Virus record (IMG/VR): IMGVR_UViG_2541047931_000006
Reading direction: 5' to 3' (one strand)
DNA: 30,214 bases
From: a virus
Lineage: Duplodnaviria > Heunggongvirae > Uroviricota > Caudoviricetes
The position numbers and the translations under genes were made by a program. The notes beneath the pieces were generated by a model. It did not search any database, was not told the origin of the DNA, and saw only the letters and a list, made by a program, of their open reading frames with translations. Below are positions 3,875 through 16,506 of this stretch, piece after piece; the stretch's first letter is position 1; each line of letters begins with the position of its first letter.

Positions 3875-4063
3875 TTATCCAGCCGGTGTTTCGTTATTCA
3901 GGTACAGCGATACTTTTTTTAGCGGGAGGCATTCACCAGAAATTTTTTGCTCGTCTCTTGCCTGGAGGCAGGATTCTTTACTTGCATAAATTCCGGTAAT
4001 CACATTCTGTGATTCACCCGTTATAAGAAAAACCGTCATCATCAGTGCAAATGCTGAAGTCAT
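3875..4063 (-). CDS. Hypothetical small protein with hydrophobic N-terminus
   Basis: 62-aa ORF in an AT-rich segment; start overlaps the stop of the upstream ORF (ATGA); no recognisable family. Confidence 0.35.
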   Translation of the reverse strand: MTSAFALMMTVFLITGESQNVITGIYASKESCLQARDEQKISGECLPLKKVSLYLNNETPAG

Positions 4064-4248
4064 TGACGTTCTCCGAAAATACCAAGTTCAAGAAGAGCAA
4101 TTCGGGAAAGTATGGAATTATCATTGAGCAGATAAGGCTCATATTTCCTCATATTAATGGCATCTTCAGTAAACTCCCGGTTACTGAGCAGAACACCAAT
4201 ATCAAAACAACCTTCAGACGTATTAACGTTTGGTAATAACGTTTCCAT
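4060..4248 (-). CDS. Hypothetical small protein
   Basis: 62-aa ORF, translationally coupled to the 3875..4063 ORF; AT-rich; no recognisable family. Confidence 0.35.
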   Translation of the reverse strand: METLLPNVNTSEGCFDIGVLLSNREFTEDAINMRKYEPYLLNDNSILSRIALLELGIFGERQ

Positions 4249-4819
4249 TATCGCGTCCTCAACAATGAATTTTGTGATGCAGTGCCTGGTGCCTCCGGGT
4301 GACGTTAACCAGTTAACAATTAACGCCGGGTTAGTTGATGCTCGTTACGCCCGTAAAATACCGCCTTACTGCTTTAACTGTTCCGCGTGCGCATAGCCGC
4401 ATTCACCGCATCACAAAATTCACTTTAAAAAGGGCGGCAGAGCAGTCACGGAGTAAAACTGATACCGCCAAATGTCACCAGAAAATTGATAACAGAGGGC
4501 GTTGTAGCGGGGTTGTCACTTAAGCGTATGGTCAACCTGACAACCCGGTGCATTTTCTGGAGCAATGGAGGAAACCCCAGCCATACTTACCGCCGCGCCA
4601 TTTCGCGGAGTGCCACAACCGGAAGCGCACGGTCGAACTAAATTTAACGACACCGTACAGAGAGACCAATTTCGCCGTGCGCTTTCGCGTTATGCCCTGA
4701 CTTTTCAGGGACATATCCTTTCAGTAAGCTGTCAGTGCCGGATGCTCACCCGTGTCCGGCGCACGCACTCCACCTGACCCGTGGAGAACTCCTTAATTAC
4801 CAACCCTCAGGAGGGTGAA

Positions 4820-8858: not shown

Positions 8859-9629
8859 ATGGAAACCGTATCTGACGCACTGAAAGCACTGAAAAAAGCC
8901 TCTTCACATGTGGTGGCAGCTCGCCTTGGAATCAGTCGTGAAGAGGCTGTCAACGAGCTGTGGGAACTCAAAAGAAAAGGCGTCGTTGATAAAACTGGTC
9001 ACACCTGGTTTCTGGCTGGCGAAGGTGAATCCCGGGTAACCGAAGAGCGGCCAGTAAAATCTGAAGCACAGGATATGCTGACCGGGGAGGTCGAACAAAA
9101 AGTTACCGCAGACATGATGATTGAGTTTATCGGTCAGGATGGGGCTAAAACGTGTGAGGAACTGGCGGGTAAGTTCGGTGTCAGTACTCGCAAGGTTGCT
9201 TCCACGCTGGCGGTGGTAACCGCAACGGGGCGGCTGGCACGCGTTAATCAGAACGGTAAATTTCGTTACTGCATGCCGGGCGATAATTTACCAGCAGAGC
9301 CGAAAGCCGCGCTGGTAACGGAAAGTGATGGTAAGGCCTTTCCTCAGCCAGCAGGTGCTGCGTTACCAGTCCGGGAAGCCGCAACACAGGAAGAAATTAA
9401 AACAGAAACTGTGGCGGACATTGTGCAGCCGTTGCCATCGTTTACCGAAACGCAAGCAGATGAGCTGATTTTTCCGTCCCTTCGCAGGGCAAACCTGGCG
9501 CTGCGCAGGGCGAAAAGTGATGTTCAGAAGTGGGAGCGAGTCTGCGCCGCGCTGCGGGAGCTGAACAAGCACCGGGATATTGTTCGACAGATTACTGATT
9601 CTTCCCGCCGTGTTGTATCGGAAAAGTGA
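8859..9629 (+). CDS. Hypothetical phage protein with two winged-helix-like segments
   Basis: 256-aa ORF with RBS GGAGG; two segments resembling wHTH (ALKKASSHVVAARLGISREEAVNEL and CEELAGKFGVSTRKVASTL). Confidence 0.5.
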   Translation: METVSDALKALKKASSHVVAARLGISREEAVNELWELKRKGVVDKTGHTWFLAGEGESRVTEERPVKSEAQDMLTGEVEQKVTADMMIEFIGQDGAKTCEELAGKFGVSTRKVASTLAVVTATGRLARVNQNGKFRYCMPGDNLPAEPKAALVTESDGKAFPQPAGAALPVREAATQEEIKTETVADIVQPLPSFTETQADELIFPSLRRANLALRRAKSDVQKWERVCAALRELNKHRDIVRQITDSSRRVVSEK

Positions 9630-9644
9630 TTGCCGGAGGCGCTT

Positions 9645-10070
9645 ATGGCAAAAGTATTTACACAAGAAGAGCGGGAAAAAATTAAAGGGCAGGTTGTTGA
9701 ACTTGTACGTCTGAGCGGTCGCGAGACGTTGCGGCAACTGGAAGCCAGGACAGGTGCGACAAGATATCTGATGAGTGTTCTCGCCAGAGAGCTGGTTGCC
9801 AGTGGCGATGTATACAACTCTGGTTACGGGTTATTCCCGTCTGAACAGGCGCGTAAGGACTGGCAAAATGCTCGCAAAAAACTCTCAAGGGCAAAGGTGA
9901 AGAAACCTGCAGTGGTTGATCCGGACCTTATCTGGTCGTTACCAGACGGCGAAATACGCCGCTACGACAGGCGCCTGAATATAATCTGTCGCGAGTGCCG
10001 GAAGAGCGAAGCTATGCAGCGTGCACTGGCATTTTATCAAGGAAATGTTAGGTATTTTAGACGTTACTAG
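9645..10070 (+). CDS. Hypothetical phage protein
   Basis: 141 aa from the ATG at 9645 preceded by GGAGG; no recognisable family. Confidence 0.45.
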   Translation: MAKVFTQEEREKIKGQVVELVRLSGRETLRQLEARTGATRYLMSVLARELVASGDVYNSGYGLFPSEQARKDWQNARKKLSRAKVKKPAVVDPDLIWSLPDGEIRRYDRRLNIICRECRKSEAMQRALAFYQGNVRYFRRY

Positions 10071-10223
10071 ATTAAAGAGCATTAGTTCAGATGTGAATTG
10101 ACATTTTCATGGCGCAGGGTAGAGCCAGCGTGGTTGTCCGCTTTGCGTCAAAACCAGATATTACCAGATTTAGACATATATTCCCGATAGACCTGCTCTG
10201 ATGCTACACTCTGTGCTATTTTC

Positions 10224-10910
10224 ATGACCCCAATAAAAATATTTATGACTATTGCTGATTTCAAACGGCCTAAATTGGAGCTCCCAAACGGGGCAAACAA
10301 ACTACTACTGCACTCTTGCTGTGCTCCATGTTCCGGTGAAGTGATGGAGGCGCTTCAGGCCTCGGGAATCGACTACACCATCTTTTTCTACAACCCGAAC
10401 ATTCATCCTCAGAAAGAGTATTTAATTCGTAAGGATGAAAATATTCGCTTTGCTGAACAACACGGCGTGCCGTTTATCGATGCTGATTACGACACCGACA
10501 ACTGGTTTGAACGTGCCAAAGGAATGGAATGGGAGCCTGAGAGGGGGATCCGTTGTACCATGTGTTTTGACATGCGTTTTGAGCGGACAGCGTTGTACGC
10601 TGCTGAAAATGGTTTCAGTGTGATCAGCAGTTCACTGGGCATTTCACGCTGGAAAAATATGCAGCAGGTTAACGAGTGTGGGCGGCGAGCTGTTGCGCAT
10701 TATCCGGGTATGGTGTACTGGGATTATAACTGGCGCAAGCAGGGCGGCTCGTCCCGTATGATTGAAATCAGCAAGCGCGAAAAATTCTATCAGCAGGAAT
10801 ATTGTGGCTGTGTGTATTCTCTGCGCGATACCAATCTACACCGCAAATCTCAGGGACGCCCTCTTATCAAAATTGGCCAACTCCACTACGGAAAAGAAGA
10901 GAAGGAGTGA
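10224..10910 (+). CDS. QueH-like protein (DUF208, putative epoxyqueuosine reductase)
   Basis: 228-aa ORF with the motif [14 protein letters not shown] near the N-terminus and further conserved Cys (CTMCFD, CGCVY); matches my recollection of the DUF208/QueH signature; not verified by search. Confidence 0.55.
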
Positions 10911-11147
10911 TTTTATGGATCACCTTTCTGATTGATTTCATATTGGCGAGGTGACGTGAGTTAAGTAGAATGGCTGCGGGTGCTTGAGGCTATCTGTCTC
11001 AGGCATGAACACTGAAAGGCAGATAGAGAAAAGCCCCAGTTAACATTTCGCGTCCTGCAAGACGCTTAACATTAATCTGAGGCCCAATCTATGTCTCACA
11101 AATGTAGGTTAGCCTCTTACGTGCCGAAAGGCAAGGGGAAGCAGGCT

Positions 11148-11303
11148 ATGAAGCAGCAAAAGGCGATGTTAATCGCCCTGATCGTCATCTGTTTAACCGT
11201 CATAGTGACGGCACTGGTAACGAGGAAAGACCTCTGCGAGGTACGACTCCGAACCGGCCAGACGGAGGTCGCTGTCTTCACAGCTTACGAACCTGAGGAG
11301 TAA
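11148..11303 (+). CDS. Hok/Gef-family membrane toxin (HokD/RelF-like)
   Basis: 51-aa product MKQQKAMLIALIVICLTVIVTALVTRKDLCEVRLRTGQTEVAVFTAYEPEE; RBS AAGGGGAA; the ORF track shows an in-frame upstream extension from 11091. Confidence 0.85.
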   Translation: MKQQKAMLIALIVICLTVIVTALVTRKDLCEVRLRTGQTEVAVFTAYEPEE

Positions 11304-11372
11304 GAGACCTGGCGGGGGAGAAATCCCTCGCCACCTCTGATGTGTCAGGCATCCTCAACGCACCCGCACTTA

Positions 11373-11399
11373 ACCCGCTTCGGCGGGTTTTGTTTTTTT
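11373..11399 (+). terminator. Rho-independent terminator downstream of hok
   Basis: ACCCGC-TTCG-GCGGGT hairpin (UUCG tetraloop) followed by TTTTGTTTTTTT. Confidence 0.7.
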
Positions 11400-14413: not shown

Positions 14414-15463
14414 ATGCTTAATACTGTAAAAATATCCAGTTGTGAGTTAATCAACGCCGACTGCCTGGAATTTATCCGGTCGTTACCCGAAAATTCTGTT
14501 GACCTGATAGTCACGGACCCGCCGTACTTTAAAGTGAAGCCTGAGGGCTGGGATAACCAGTGGAAGAGCGACGATGATTACCTGAAGTGGCTGGACCAGT
14601 GTCTGGCGCAGTTCTGGCGGGTGCTGAAACCTGTCGGAAGTCTTTACCTGTTCTGTGGTCATCGCCTGGCATCTGATATCGAAATCATGATGCGTGAACG
14701 CTTCAGTGTGCTGAACCATATTATCTGGGCGAAGCCGTCCGGACGCTGGAACGGATGCAACAAGGAAAGCCTGCGGGCGTATTTCCCCGCCACAGAGCGC
14801 ATTCTGTTCGCGGAACATTATCAGGGGCCGTATCGTCCGAAAGATGCCGGGTATGCGGCGAAGGGCAGTGCACTGAAACAGCATGTGATGGCCCCGCTGA
14901 TTTCTTACTTTCGTGATGCGCGCGCTGCCCTGGGGATAACGGCAAAACAGATTGCAGATGCCACAGGAAAGAAAAACATGGTGTCGCACTGGTTCAGTGC
15001 CAGTCAGTGGCAGCTACCGAACGAAAGCGATTATCTGAAATTACAGTCGCTGTTTGCCCGGGTGGCAGAAGAGAAACATCAGCGCGGTGAACTGGAAAAG
15101 CCCCACCACCAGCTGGTGGATACGTATACGTCACTGAACCGGCAGTATGTGGAGCTGCAGAGTGAATATAAGCATCTGCGGCGGTATTTTGGTGTGACGG
15201 CGCAGGTGCCGTACACGGATGTGTGGACACATAAACCGGTGCAGTTCTATCCCGGGAAACATCCGTGCGAAAAACCGGCAGAAATGCTGCAGCAGATAAT
15301 CAGCGCAAGCAGTCGTCCGGGTGACCTGGTTGCAGATTTTTTTATGGGCTCAGGTTCAACGGTAAAAGCGGCACTGGCGCTCGGGCGTCGTGCGATTGGC
15401 GTTGAACTGGAGACCGGACGTTTTGAGCAGACAGTCAGGGAAGTTCAGGATTTAATCGTTTGA
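14414..15463 (+). CDS. DNA methyltransferase, beta-class amino-MTase (N6-adenine or N4-cytosine), orphan
   Basis: 349-aa ORF; DPPY motif (VDLIVTDPPYF) near the N-terminus and an FxGxG AdoMet-binding motif (FFMGSGSTVKAA) near the C-terminus; no adjacent restriction endonuclease gene. Confidence 0.8.
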   Translation: MLNTVKISSCELINADCLEFIRSLPENSVDLIVTDPPYFKVKPEGWDNQWKSDDDYLKWLDQCLAQFWRVLKPVGSLYLFCGHRLASDIEIMMRERFSVLNHIIWAKPSGRWNGCNKESLRAYFPATERILFAEHYQGPYRPKDAGYAAKGSALKQHVMAPLISYFRDARAALGITAKQIADATGKKNMVSHWFSASQWQLPNESDYLKLQSLFARVAEEKHQRGELEKPHHQLVDTYTSLNRQYVELQSEYKHLRRYFGVTAQVPYTDVWTHKPVQFYPGKHPCEKPAEMLQQIISASSRPGDLVADFFMGSGSTVKAALALGRRAIGVELETGRFEQTVREVQDLIV

Positions 15464-15512: not shown

Positions 15513-15588
15513 GGCCCTTTAGCTCAGTGGTGAGAGCGAGCGACTCATAATCGCCAGGTCGCTGGTTCAAATCCAGCAAGGGCCACCA
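15513..15588 (+). tRNA. tRNA with anticodon CAU (Met, or Ile if lysidine-modified; ileZ-like)
   Basis: Cloverleaf folded by hand: acceptor GGCCCTT/AAGGGCC, D-arm GCTC/GAGC, anticodon loop CTCATAA, T-arm GCTGG-TTCAAAT-CCAGC, 3' ACCA. Confidence 0.85.
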
Positions 15589-15595
15589 TCACATA

Positions 15596-15672
15596 CCGCC
15601 ATTAGCTCATCAGGAAAGAGCGCCAGCTTTCGAAGCTGGTTGCGCGGAGTTCGGGTCCCCGAAGGCGGTCCA
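15596..15672 (+). tRNA. tRNA-Arg-like (anticodon UCG) with atypical T-arm
   Basis: Hand fold: D-arm GCTC/GAGC, perfect anticodon stem CCAGC/GCTGG with loop TTTCGAA, 3' TCCA; acceptor and T-stem each have one mismatch and the T-loop TTCGGGT lacks the usual A58. Confidence 0.55.
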
Positions 15673-15685
15673 TTATCTGTATCCT

Positions 15686-15762
15686 GCGTTGTTAGCTCAG
15701 CCGGACAGAGCAATTGCCTTCTAAGCAATCGGTCACTGGTTCGAATCCAGTACAACGCGCCA
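15686..15762 (+). tRNA. tRNA-Arg (anticodon UCU)
   Basis: Hand fold: acceptor GCGTTGT/ACAACGC, D-arm GCTC/GAGC, anticodon stem ATTGC/GCAAT with loop CTTCTAA, T-arm ACTGG-TTCGAAT-CCAGT, 3' GCCA. Confidence 0.85.
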
Positions 15763-15777
15763 CACTTATTTTCCCTG

Positions 15778-15800
15778 GCTCGCTTTTGCGGGCTTTTTTT
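15778..15800 (+). terminator. Rho-independent terminator after the tRNA cluster
   Basis: GCTCGC-TTTT-GCGGGC hairpin (one G-U pair) followed by T7. Confidence 0.65.
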
Positions 15801-15805
15801 AAATG

Positions 15806-16020
15806 TCTCACAATTCAGGCGGTTGACTGTTGTCTGGTTTGCGGGGAGTTTGTTAAAAGAAACTGGCATGGTGAATCCCCCTGTGCGGAGGGGCAATCAG
15901 CGAGTAGGTATATGGGATAATCGCGGATTCAGGTGCTGGTACTGAATTCACCGGGAGGCACCCGGCACCATGCAATGGCACATAGCGCCACTCTCCAGCC
16001 CCTCTCCGGAGGGGCTTTTC
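15806..16020 (+). repeat. Structured non-coding module, copy 1
   Basis: Shares with copy 2 the blocks CTCACAATTCAG, TTGAC(T/A), TTTGTTAAAA, CATGGTGAATCCCCCTG(T/A)GCGGAGGGGC, TGAA(T/C)TCACCGGGAGGCACCCGGCACCATG and the terminal hairpin AGCCCCTCTCCGGAGGGGCTTT. Confidence 0.6.
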
Positions 16021-16273
16021 TGTGCCGGATACATCACAGTTTCTGGAACCTTAGGTACTACAGTATCAGTCAGGGTGCTATATTTTCAGATGTGATGAAA
16101 GCCTGTCAGCAGGCAGGGCGTATCGGAAATGACCCAGTAGAGAAAACGTTGACTCAGATACCGGTGCTGAGTTACCGGGAAACCGGCATCACATGACCGC
16201 TATCCTTCCAGGCCCATCCGCTCCGGTGGGCCTTTTTACTGCAGAAAACAGGTTCCCCGTTAAATGCTATGTT

Positions 16274-16506
16274 GCTCACAATTCAGTAAGTTGACAGTTG
16301 CCTGTCAGACTGGGCATTTGTTAAAAAAATTTCGCATGGTGAATCCCCCTGAGCGGAGGGGCGACTGGTGACGGTATAATCTCTGATTATCAAAACGAGA
16401 ATGACGCGGGTTTAGTGGCACCGGGCTGAACTCACCGGGAGGCACCCGGCACCATGTGCATGATGATACAGATACGCGGCTTTAGCCCCTCTCCGGAGGG
16501 GCTTTC
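16274..16506 (+). repeat. Structured non-coding module, copy 2
   Basis: Second copy of the same block set; carries a consensus TTGACA and a TATAAT hexamer; ends in the GCCCCTC-TCCG-GAGGGGC hairpin plus T-run; the flanking ACAAAAAAA-GCCCGCG...CGCGGGC hairpin would be a terminator on the minus strand. Confidence 0.6.

Follow-up and report, generated by a model that had tools for sequence, protein, structure and literature searches.

The window analysed here, the whole 30,214-nucleotide stretch of the IMG/VR virus record IMGVR_UViG_2541047931_000006 (Caudoviricetes), carries an open reading frame (ORF) that, judged by profile, alignment and structure comparisons, encodes a genuine and intact QueH, predicted to be a [4Fe-4S]/Fe epoxyqueuosine reductase. 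The protein belongs to the QueH family, has its fold and retains its full metal-ligand set; the gene (queH) lies in a prophage, co-occurs with the host gene queG, is under purifying selection and travels with a promoter-like element. In lysogens, prophage QueH probably completes the queuosine (Q) modification of host tRNA whatever the supply of cobalamin (vitamin B12) or the status of BtuB. The original prediction, which was made from the letters of this DNA, had proposed that the gene could alter host tRNA queuosine modification, and this is the function that the QueH identity supports best.

Identity and fold of the prophage QueH

The ORF spans positions 10224-10910 on the plus strand, is 228 aa long and contains a CCAPC motif. 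The Pfam family PF02677 (QueH, formerly DUF208), whose curated cut-off is 23.5 bits, matched the ORF over almost the full length of the profile (1-174/175; E=1.1e-65, 221.5 bits), crystal structures of Thermotoga maritima QueH (7lc5 and others) were matched by the ORF sequence with E=8e-22, and a homologue scan of 1.84 billion cluster representatives found 4775 relatives at E<=1e-3. The earlier assignment of the ORF to QueH (DUF208) was thus borne out by the profile search, the structures and the alignments described below.

Conservation was assessed, in the numbering of the 228-aa ORF, in an alignment of 81 sequences (diverse representatives and T. maritima) and in one of 43 sequences (A1). 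The seven cysteines conserved in the family, C32, C33, C36, C111, C114, C194 and C196, are all present in the prophage protein, and the further invariant or nearly invariant columns N59, Y66, R69, E106, R110, R118 and K144 are likewise kept. The cysteines of prophage QueH align with C9, C10 and D13 and with the CxxC and CGC motifs of the T. maritima enzyme. The CCAPC motif represents the family norm, since position 36 is occupied by cysteine in 68 of 73 representatives, with Asp13 of T. maritima as the outlier. These QueH cysteines are reportedly ligands of a [4Fe-4S] cluster and an adjacent iron, and two of the reported ligand positions are mutated in PDB entries of T. maritima QueH (C9S and D13N; 9d86, 9dco).

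The AlphaFold2 model built on the 43-sequence alignment reached a mean predicted local distance difference test score (pLDDT) of 96 and a predicted template modelling score (pTM) of 0.91. The top five Foldseek matches in the PDB were all T. maritima QueH, namely the wild type, the complexes with GMP and queuosine (9deu), and the C9S and D13N mutants, with target-normalised template modelling scores (TM) of 0.90-0.92 and root-mean-square deviations (rmsd) of 1.2-2.0 Å; the superposition on 7lc5 gave TM 0.92 and rmsd 1.2 Å. The model thus has the fold of the solved QueH structures, with an adenine-nucleotide-alpha-hydrolase-like core. The next matches after QueH were TtuA, TilS and GMP synthase, with E values of about 1e-4.

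Gene start, promoter-like element and distribution of queH

Translation of queH most likely starts at ATG 10245 (Met8), 21 nt downstream of the in-frame ATG 10224, because PGAP begins the protein at Met8 (WP_000150294.1), residues 1-7 are dissimilar between alleles (MTPIKIF versus MNLINTF) and interrupted by an in-frame stop in one allele, and chromosomal queH homologues start at the methionine equivalent to Met8; ATG 10224 was dropped on the same comparisons. In the ORF as originally delimited, the cysteine motif is present, and the start is most likely displaced. A start at Met41, implied by the coverage of the match to PHROG 3217, was ruled out, as residues 8-40, including CCAPC, are conserved across alleles and genera. 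Many prophage calls seemingly start at Met41 and omit CCAPC, and because residues 8-40 are conserved at the protein level these calls are likely a systematic artefact of gene prediction, through which phage databases miss the function. The internal Met41 codon (10344-10346 in the window) is preceded by a Shine-Dalgarno-like GGTGA motif.

Prophage queH loci were observed in three unrelated upstream contexts, which have in common only about 45-65 nt before the start, always including TGCTACAC(T). The same element is located 37-44 nt upstream of the chromosomal queH of the nearest relatives, in variants such as TGCTACAAT, TGCTACACT, TGCTACCCT, TGCTATATT and TGCTAAAAT with unrelated flanks, in genomes of Scandinavium, Kluyvera, Enterobacter, Symbiopectobacterium, Erwinia-like bacteria and others. 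The motif TGCTAnnnT occurs at 21 of 78 queH loci, whereas a control window contained it at 2 of the 78. That a promoter-like element travels with queH suggests expression in lysogens; constitutive-type transcription in lysogens, complemented by read-through after induction, is what we infer from this arrangement. No terminator-like site between the replication genes and queH was found in a scan of 9500-10224, and Rfam at E<=10 gave no credible riboswitch match upstream of queH. Riboswitches, the preQ1 type included, and a structured leader were ruled out, with only meaningless microRNA and lncRNA matches in Rfam and a fold z-score of +0.7, no better than shuffles. In one allele group (L007 4735-4920, L010 4735-4920, L001 5762-5968), a truncated methyltransferase remnant is located directly upstream of queH, and the approximately 65 nt between this remnant and the queH promoter contain a 9-bp perfect inverted repeat, GTCTGCTTT…AAAGCAGAC, which is degraded in the window (10134-10166).

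The closest proteins to prophage QueH outside Escherichia exhibit 84-92% amino acid identity. Various chromosomal surroundings were observed for their genes, such as between tmcA and purC-side housekeeping genes in Providencia; between purL and glrK-glrR-glnB-hmp-glyA in an Erwinia-type genome; and near dcm-vsr, or near LysR and acetyltransferase genes, for other chromosomal copies. In Scandinavium, Kluyvera and several Enterobacter (loci L096-L100 and L105; 88-92% amino acid identity to the window), queH alone is common between the loci and the flanks all differ, and no integrase or insertion sequence (IS) next to queH stood out at these six loci in a quick ORF listing whose flanks were not profile-searched. 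Since the gene alone is shared and all flanks are different, queH appears from these comparisons to wander through the Enterobacteriaceae as a single-gene cassette, together with about 45 nt of putative promoter. Degraded prophages also keep queH intact, such as L003, with a frameshifted portal gene, and L007 and L010, with pseudogenes around queH. The ratio of non-synonymous to synonymous substitution rates (dN/dS; Nei-Gojobori) ranges between 0.04 and 0.10 among six prophage alleles, for pairs with dS of 0.10-0.45, and the prophage alleles are under strong purifying selection.

A nucleotide search at a threshold of at least 90% identity detected queH in 995 of 5426 complete Escherichia coli genomes (18%), and in 985 of the 995 carrier genomes (99%) a copy spans 80% of the gene or more. 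Truncated copies also occur, one of them being H31 with 65% coverage. The carriers among the matches listed include an O25b:H4-ST131, an O157:H7 and an O121 strain. All seven contexts inspected are lambdoid prophages with queH directly after the replication module, and among one-genome-per-species representatives only Escherichia albertii showed the same phage neighbours. Escherichia phage HannyBb, an isolated phage, harbours queH at the same genome position under the annotation 'hypothetical protein', and 190 IMG/VR viral contigs encode a relative, the best 80 of which have a 100% identical protein. With its strain-variable presence, its position between DUF977 and the DUF968-RusA-Q module, its atypical GC content (0.44-0.48 against 0.52-0.56 in the phage flanks) and its putative promoter-like element, queH displays the traits of a moron-type gene.

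The enzyme family, its structure and the RefSeq name of this exact protein, 'epoxyqueuosine reductase QueH', are already public, and phage or prophage carriage of QueH appears to be unreported, as full-text literature searches found no paper discussing it. The gene had originally been called unusual in such a setting; this stands for the phage literature searched and does not stand for the genomes, given its presence in 18% of the complete E. coli genomes and its correct name in RefSeq. Prophage QueH would correct phage annotation, where PHROG 3217 is of 'unknown function', the HannyBb protein is 'hypothetical' and the main survey of viruses for queuosine-pathway genes (PMC6884629) lists no homologues of QueA, QueG or QueH.

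Probable role in queuosine maturation in lysogens and alternative readings

Full-length queG was detected in 5426 of 5426 E. coli genomes, so that prophage QueH represents a second, non-orthologous epoxyqueuosine reductase. E. coli has no de novo synthesis of B12 and takes it up through BtuB/TonB. QueH acts at the tRNA-specific end of the pathway, and its substrate, epoxyqueuosine (oQ), is made by QueA on tRNA-bound preQ1. E. coli is a Q prototroph (PMC9508795), and its QueG is cobalamin-dependent (PMC4646009; PMC11841063), being one of four cobamide-dependent enzymes of this species (PMC11841063); according to PMC4646009, Frey 1988 showed that E. coli and Salmonella depend on a cobamide for the final step in making Q. 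Mutants of Pseudomonas aeruginosa in btuB, tonB and cob accumulate oQ (PMC12300143), and QueH is regarded as a B12-independent alternative (PMC10378866; PMC13443448).

The reading that we prefer starts from a queH pool circulating in Enterobacterales, from which the gene would have been captured with its small promoter; lambdoid prophages (Qin/Rac/Stx-phage-like) of E. coli and E. albertii now carry it as cargo in their early-right region. In a lysogen, QueH would carry out a B12-free reduction of oQ at position 34 (oQ34) to Q34 on tRNA-Asp, -Asn, -His and -Tyr of the host and would thereby uncouple the last maturation step of Q-tRNA from B12 supply and BtuB status; after induction, transcription from the early-right promoter may run on into queH as well. 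Activity on E. coli oQ-tRNA is backed indirectly, by the 84-92% identity to bacterial queH in non-phage contexts, and a fitness benefit for the lysogen is presumed.

Several observations weigh against this reading. The -35 of the element TGCTACACT is weak, and a simple sigma-70 scan did not call it. An NCBIfam profile search of the ORF product gave no match, which is regarded as uninformative, and the match to PHROG 3217 ('unknown function', E=2e-138) covers residues 41-228 only. QueH is 75-80% identical even to proteins of Sphingomonas, Stenotrophomonas and Neisseriaceae, and because the family is so extremely conserved across Proteobacteria, high identity argues for conserved function and says little about the date of capture. 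To our knowledge, no phenotype separates oQ-tRNA from Q-tRNA in E. coli, which is a difficulty, as regards selective benefit, for all of the functional readings alike. In one setting, deletion of queG had no effect on growth (PMC11841063).

Among the alternatives, a benefit to the phage itself survives best, although it is unlikely: queH might be an early lytic auxiliary gene, transcribed from the early-right promoter, whose product tops up Q34 on host tRNAs for efficient and accurate decoding of the NAU and NAC codons of late genes during the burst. In line with this, queH is co-oriented with and directly downstream of the replication genes, no terminator being predicted between them; the virion-forming HannyBb keeps the gene at the same position; and the purifying selection fits equally well. 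The promoter-like element, however, accompanies queH also in non-phage chromosomal copies, which argues for expression independent of the lytic programme, tRNA pool turnover is presumably slow relative to the lytic cycle, and degraded prophages (L003, L007, L010) still hold an intact queH. Lytic benefit and host benefit are mutually compatible.

It is very improbable that queH is a functionless, decaying hitch-hiker. Its activity looks redundant with queG present in every E. coli genome, and some copies are truncated, but dN/dS values remain low over substantial synonymous divergence, nearly all carrier genomes keep a copy covering most of the gene, the catalytic-type residues are all retained, and queH is kept where neighbouring prophage genes are pseudogenised; the strong purifying selection largely refutes this reading. 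Just as improbable is the idea of a conflict gene, by which QueH would alter the susceptibility of host tRNA to a tRNA-targeting toxin or defence, such as anticodon nucleases that cut Q-family tRNAs. The circumstantial evidence for it is that a variable slot with toxin or defence cargo adjoins queH and that QueH targets the wobble base of four tRNAs, whereas the contents of the slot vary independently of queH and a PADLOC defence-system search gave no match for QueH, by which a role as a defence-system component was ruled out. We know of no nuclease that discriminates oQ from Q, which also counts against a conflict gene.

The least probable reading, with almost no likelihood left to it, is the anti-restriction role in 7-deazaguanine modification of phage DNA that had been offered in the original prediction. 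Phages use the preQ0 branch for DNA modification (PMC6884629), and queH adjoins a slot that elsewhere holds restriction-modification (R-M) or Kiwa-like defence genes. The 7-deazaguanine DNA pathway depends, however, on genes for preQ0 synthesis and on a transglycosylase of the DpdA/TGT type (Hutinet 2019, PMC6884629), and neither DpdA/TGT nor FolE, QueC, QueD, QueE or QueF was found among the window ORFs or in the PGAP-annotated near-identical prophage L003, which partly covers the prophage tail end beyond the window; a modifying amidotransferase was also not found in the window ORFs or the L003 annotation. QueH moreover acts on the tRNA branch, on the oQ made by QueA; QueA, QueG and QueH were not found in the 7-deazaguanine phages analysed by Hutinet 2019 (PMC6884629); and the 84-92% identity to non-phage bacterial QueH gives no sign of neofunctionalisation. 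A link to this DNA pathway was therefore ruled out for want of its partner genes in the window and L003, and the proposal is unsupported.

The completion of host Q-tRNA in lysogens is thus retained as the most probable role of prophage QueH. A broader proposal stands at even chances: that lambdoid prophages spread a B12-independent epoxyqueuosine reductase as a lysogenic-conversion gene, by which about one fifth of strains could complete Q without imported cobalamin. If this were true, such strains would complete Q where B12 is scarce, for example, or once BtuB, itself a receptor for phages and colicins, has been lost or repressed. No gene of the tRNA-specific queuosine branch would have been described from a virus before queH, and the E. 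coli epitranscriptome would in part be determined by a gene that varies between strains. Provided that QueH is active in lysogens, the balance of Q and oQ on four tRNAs would depend on prophage content together with B12 supply, and an active prophage QueH would add a mobile, strain-variable layer of tRNA modification. The pay-off is modest, with no new mechanism or enzyme, a RefSeq name that is correct already and no known difference in phenotype between oQ and Q; queH, though genuine, is a rather ordinary metabolic passenger.

Prophage neighbourhood and comparison with known systems

The window represents a lambdoid prophage, whose gene order runs from the left end through integrase, excisionase, RecE-like exonuclease, dicB and DicF to repressor/Cro-like genes, YdaT, an O-like gene, a DnaC-like gene, DUF1627, DUF977, queH and hok/sok, followed by DUF968, RusA, antiterminator Q, an N6/N4 DNA methyltransferase, three tRNAs, lysis, terminase and capsid genes. 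The near-identical prophage L003 adjoins ompW in E. coli FDAARGOS_1283. This integrase-to-capsid order confirms the prophage setting described originally, and the Hok toxin, the phage-encoded tRNAs and the orphan methyltransferase that had been placed in the same prophage are all present, as shown in Table 1.

Table 1. Features of the queH region and of the tRNA and methylase genes (window positions)
Feature	Position	Strand	Basis and remarks
DUF977 gene, last of the replication module upstream of queH	9630-10070	+	Pfam PF06163; order same in L002, L003, L008, L009
Intergenic region DUF977-queH	10071-10244	+	Without predicted terminator, riboswitch or stable structure
Extended -10-like element TGCTACACT, putative native queH promoter	10202-10210	+	35 nt upstream of ATG 10245; motif conservation
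queH coding sequence (CDS)	10245-10910	+	221 aa from Met8; Pfam, PDB, AlphaFold2/Foldseek, family residues, dN/dS
hok/sok regulatory RNA region	10978-11153	+	Rfam RF01794, 120.5 bits
hok (HokD-type) type I toxin CDS, 51 aa	11148-11303	+	ORF; PGAP 'hokD' in near-identical prophage L003
N6_N4 DNA methylase	14414-15463		Ordinary N6/N4 DNA methyltransferase
Three tRNAs	15513-15762		ARAGORN: Met(CAU) (PGAP: tRNA-Ile, Ile2), Arg(UCG), Arg(UCU)

A promoter-like TTGGCG-17-TAGAAT was observed at 10943-10971, before hok/sok, and a terminator-like hairpin at 11372-11389, after hok; no terminator was found in the stretch from the end of queH to hok/sok. The slot directly downstream of queH is occupied by hok/sok in most loci; in 22 of 88 loci it holds a Dcm methyltransferase together with an NgoMIV-type endonuclease, and in others a KwaB-like (Kiwa) gene pair or a DUF1971 gene. 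Because the contents of the slot vary, hok is a neighbour and no partner of queH, and a functional coupling of the two was ruled out, queH staying while the slot changes. In the loci with Dcm and NgoMIV, the hok coding region is replaced and the 5' part of the hok leader is kept (10911-11090 in the window; 11688-11871 in L002, for example).

A connection of queH with the phage tRNAs, which the original prediction had implied, was ruled out by the anticodons CAU, UCG and UCU, none of which is of the GUN type, so that these tRNAs are not queuosine substrates; the methyltransferase, to which a connection had likewise been implied, is an ordinary N6/N4 DNA methyltransferase. The first tRNA (15513-15588) is called Met(CAT) by ARAGORN and tRNA-Ile by PGAP for the identical gene in related prophages; it is ileZ-like, with a presumably lysidine-modified C34.

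The DicF small RNA (sRNA; 4432-4483, minus strand; Rfam 77 bits) and dicB (4060-4248, minus strand) tie the left arm to a Qin/Rac-type immunity and cell-division-inhibition region, and the backbone is Stx-phage-like, with Q, DNA methylase and ileZ-argN-argO-type tRNAs followed by an esterase. The stx genes are not in their usual position after the tRNAs, where positions 15763-16736 of the window contain two copies of the STnc100 sRNA family (15837-16027 and 16305-16514). The nanS-p-like SASA-family esterase gene (16737-19850) is apparently split by an IS3-family element into an N-terminal DUF1737 piece (16737-17264) and a C-terminal SASA/DUF6645 piece (18480-19850), with orfA at 17306-17617 and the rve-integrase orfB at 17737-18483 inside it; at its left end, the IS element overlaps an Rfam match to 'isrC' (17302-17424).

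Compared with known systems, prophage QueH shares the full-length profile, the fold and the cysteine constellation (CCAPx, CxxC, CGC) with the crystallised T. maritima enzyme (7lc5, 7lc7, 9deu), from which it differs in its overall sequence (31% identity), in having Cys36 in place of Asp13, in a C-terminal tail of about 25 residues that is typical of proteobacterial members, and in being encoded on a phage genome instead of a bacterial chromosome. Chromosomal queH genes of Providencia, Proteus, Erwinia, Photorhabdus and Serratia, and of Scandinavium, Kluyvera and Enterobacter, encode proteins of the same length and start at 84-92% amino acid identity, and the closest ones have TGCTAnnnT about 40 nt upstream, as in the prophage; they reside among non-phage genes (tmcA…purC, purL/glrK), whereas the gene described here resides inside a lambdoid prophage. 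The 7-deazaguanine genes of phages such as 9g and CAjan (FolE, QueC/D/E, DpdA, Gat-QueC) likewise represent queuosine-pathway genes on phages, but they form preQ0/DNA-branch clusters with DpdA, in contrast to the lone tRNA-branch queH without those partners. QueG (yjeS in E. coli) performs the same reaction as QueH, from oQ34 to Q34 on tRNA, in the same cell with an unrelated fold and cofactor, being a relative of reductive dehalogenases that contains B12 and two [4Fe-4S] clusters (PMC4646009) and needs imported cobalamin. Staphylococcus aureus, Streptococcus pyogenes and Streptococcus suis carry both QueG and QueH, a pair thought to buffer cofactor availability (PMC13443448; PMC12632869); the staphylococcal and streptococcal pairs are treated as the species' own genes, whereas E. 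coli receives its second enzyme from prophages, and in some strains only.

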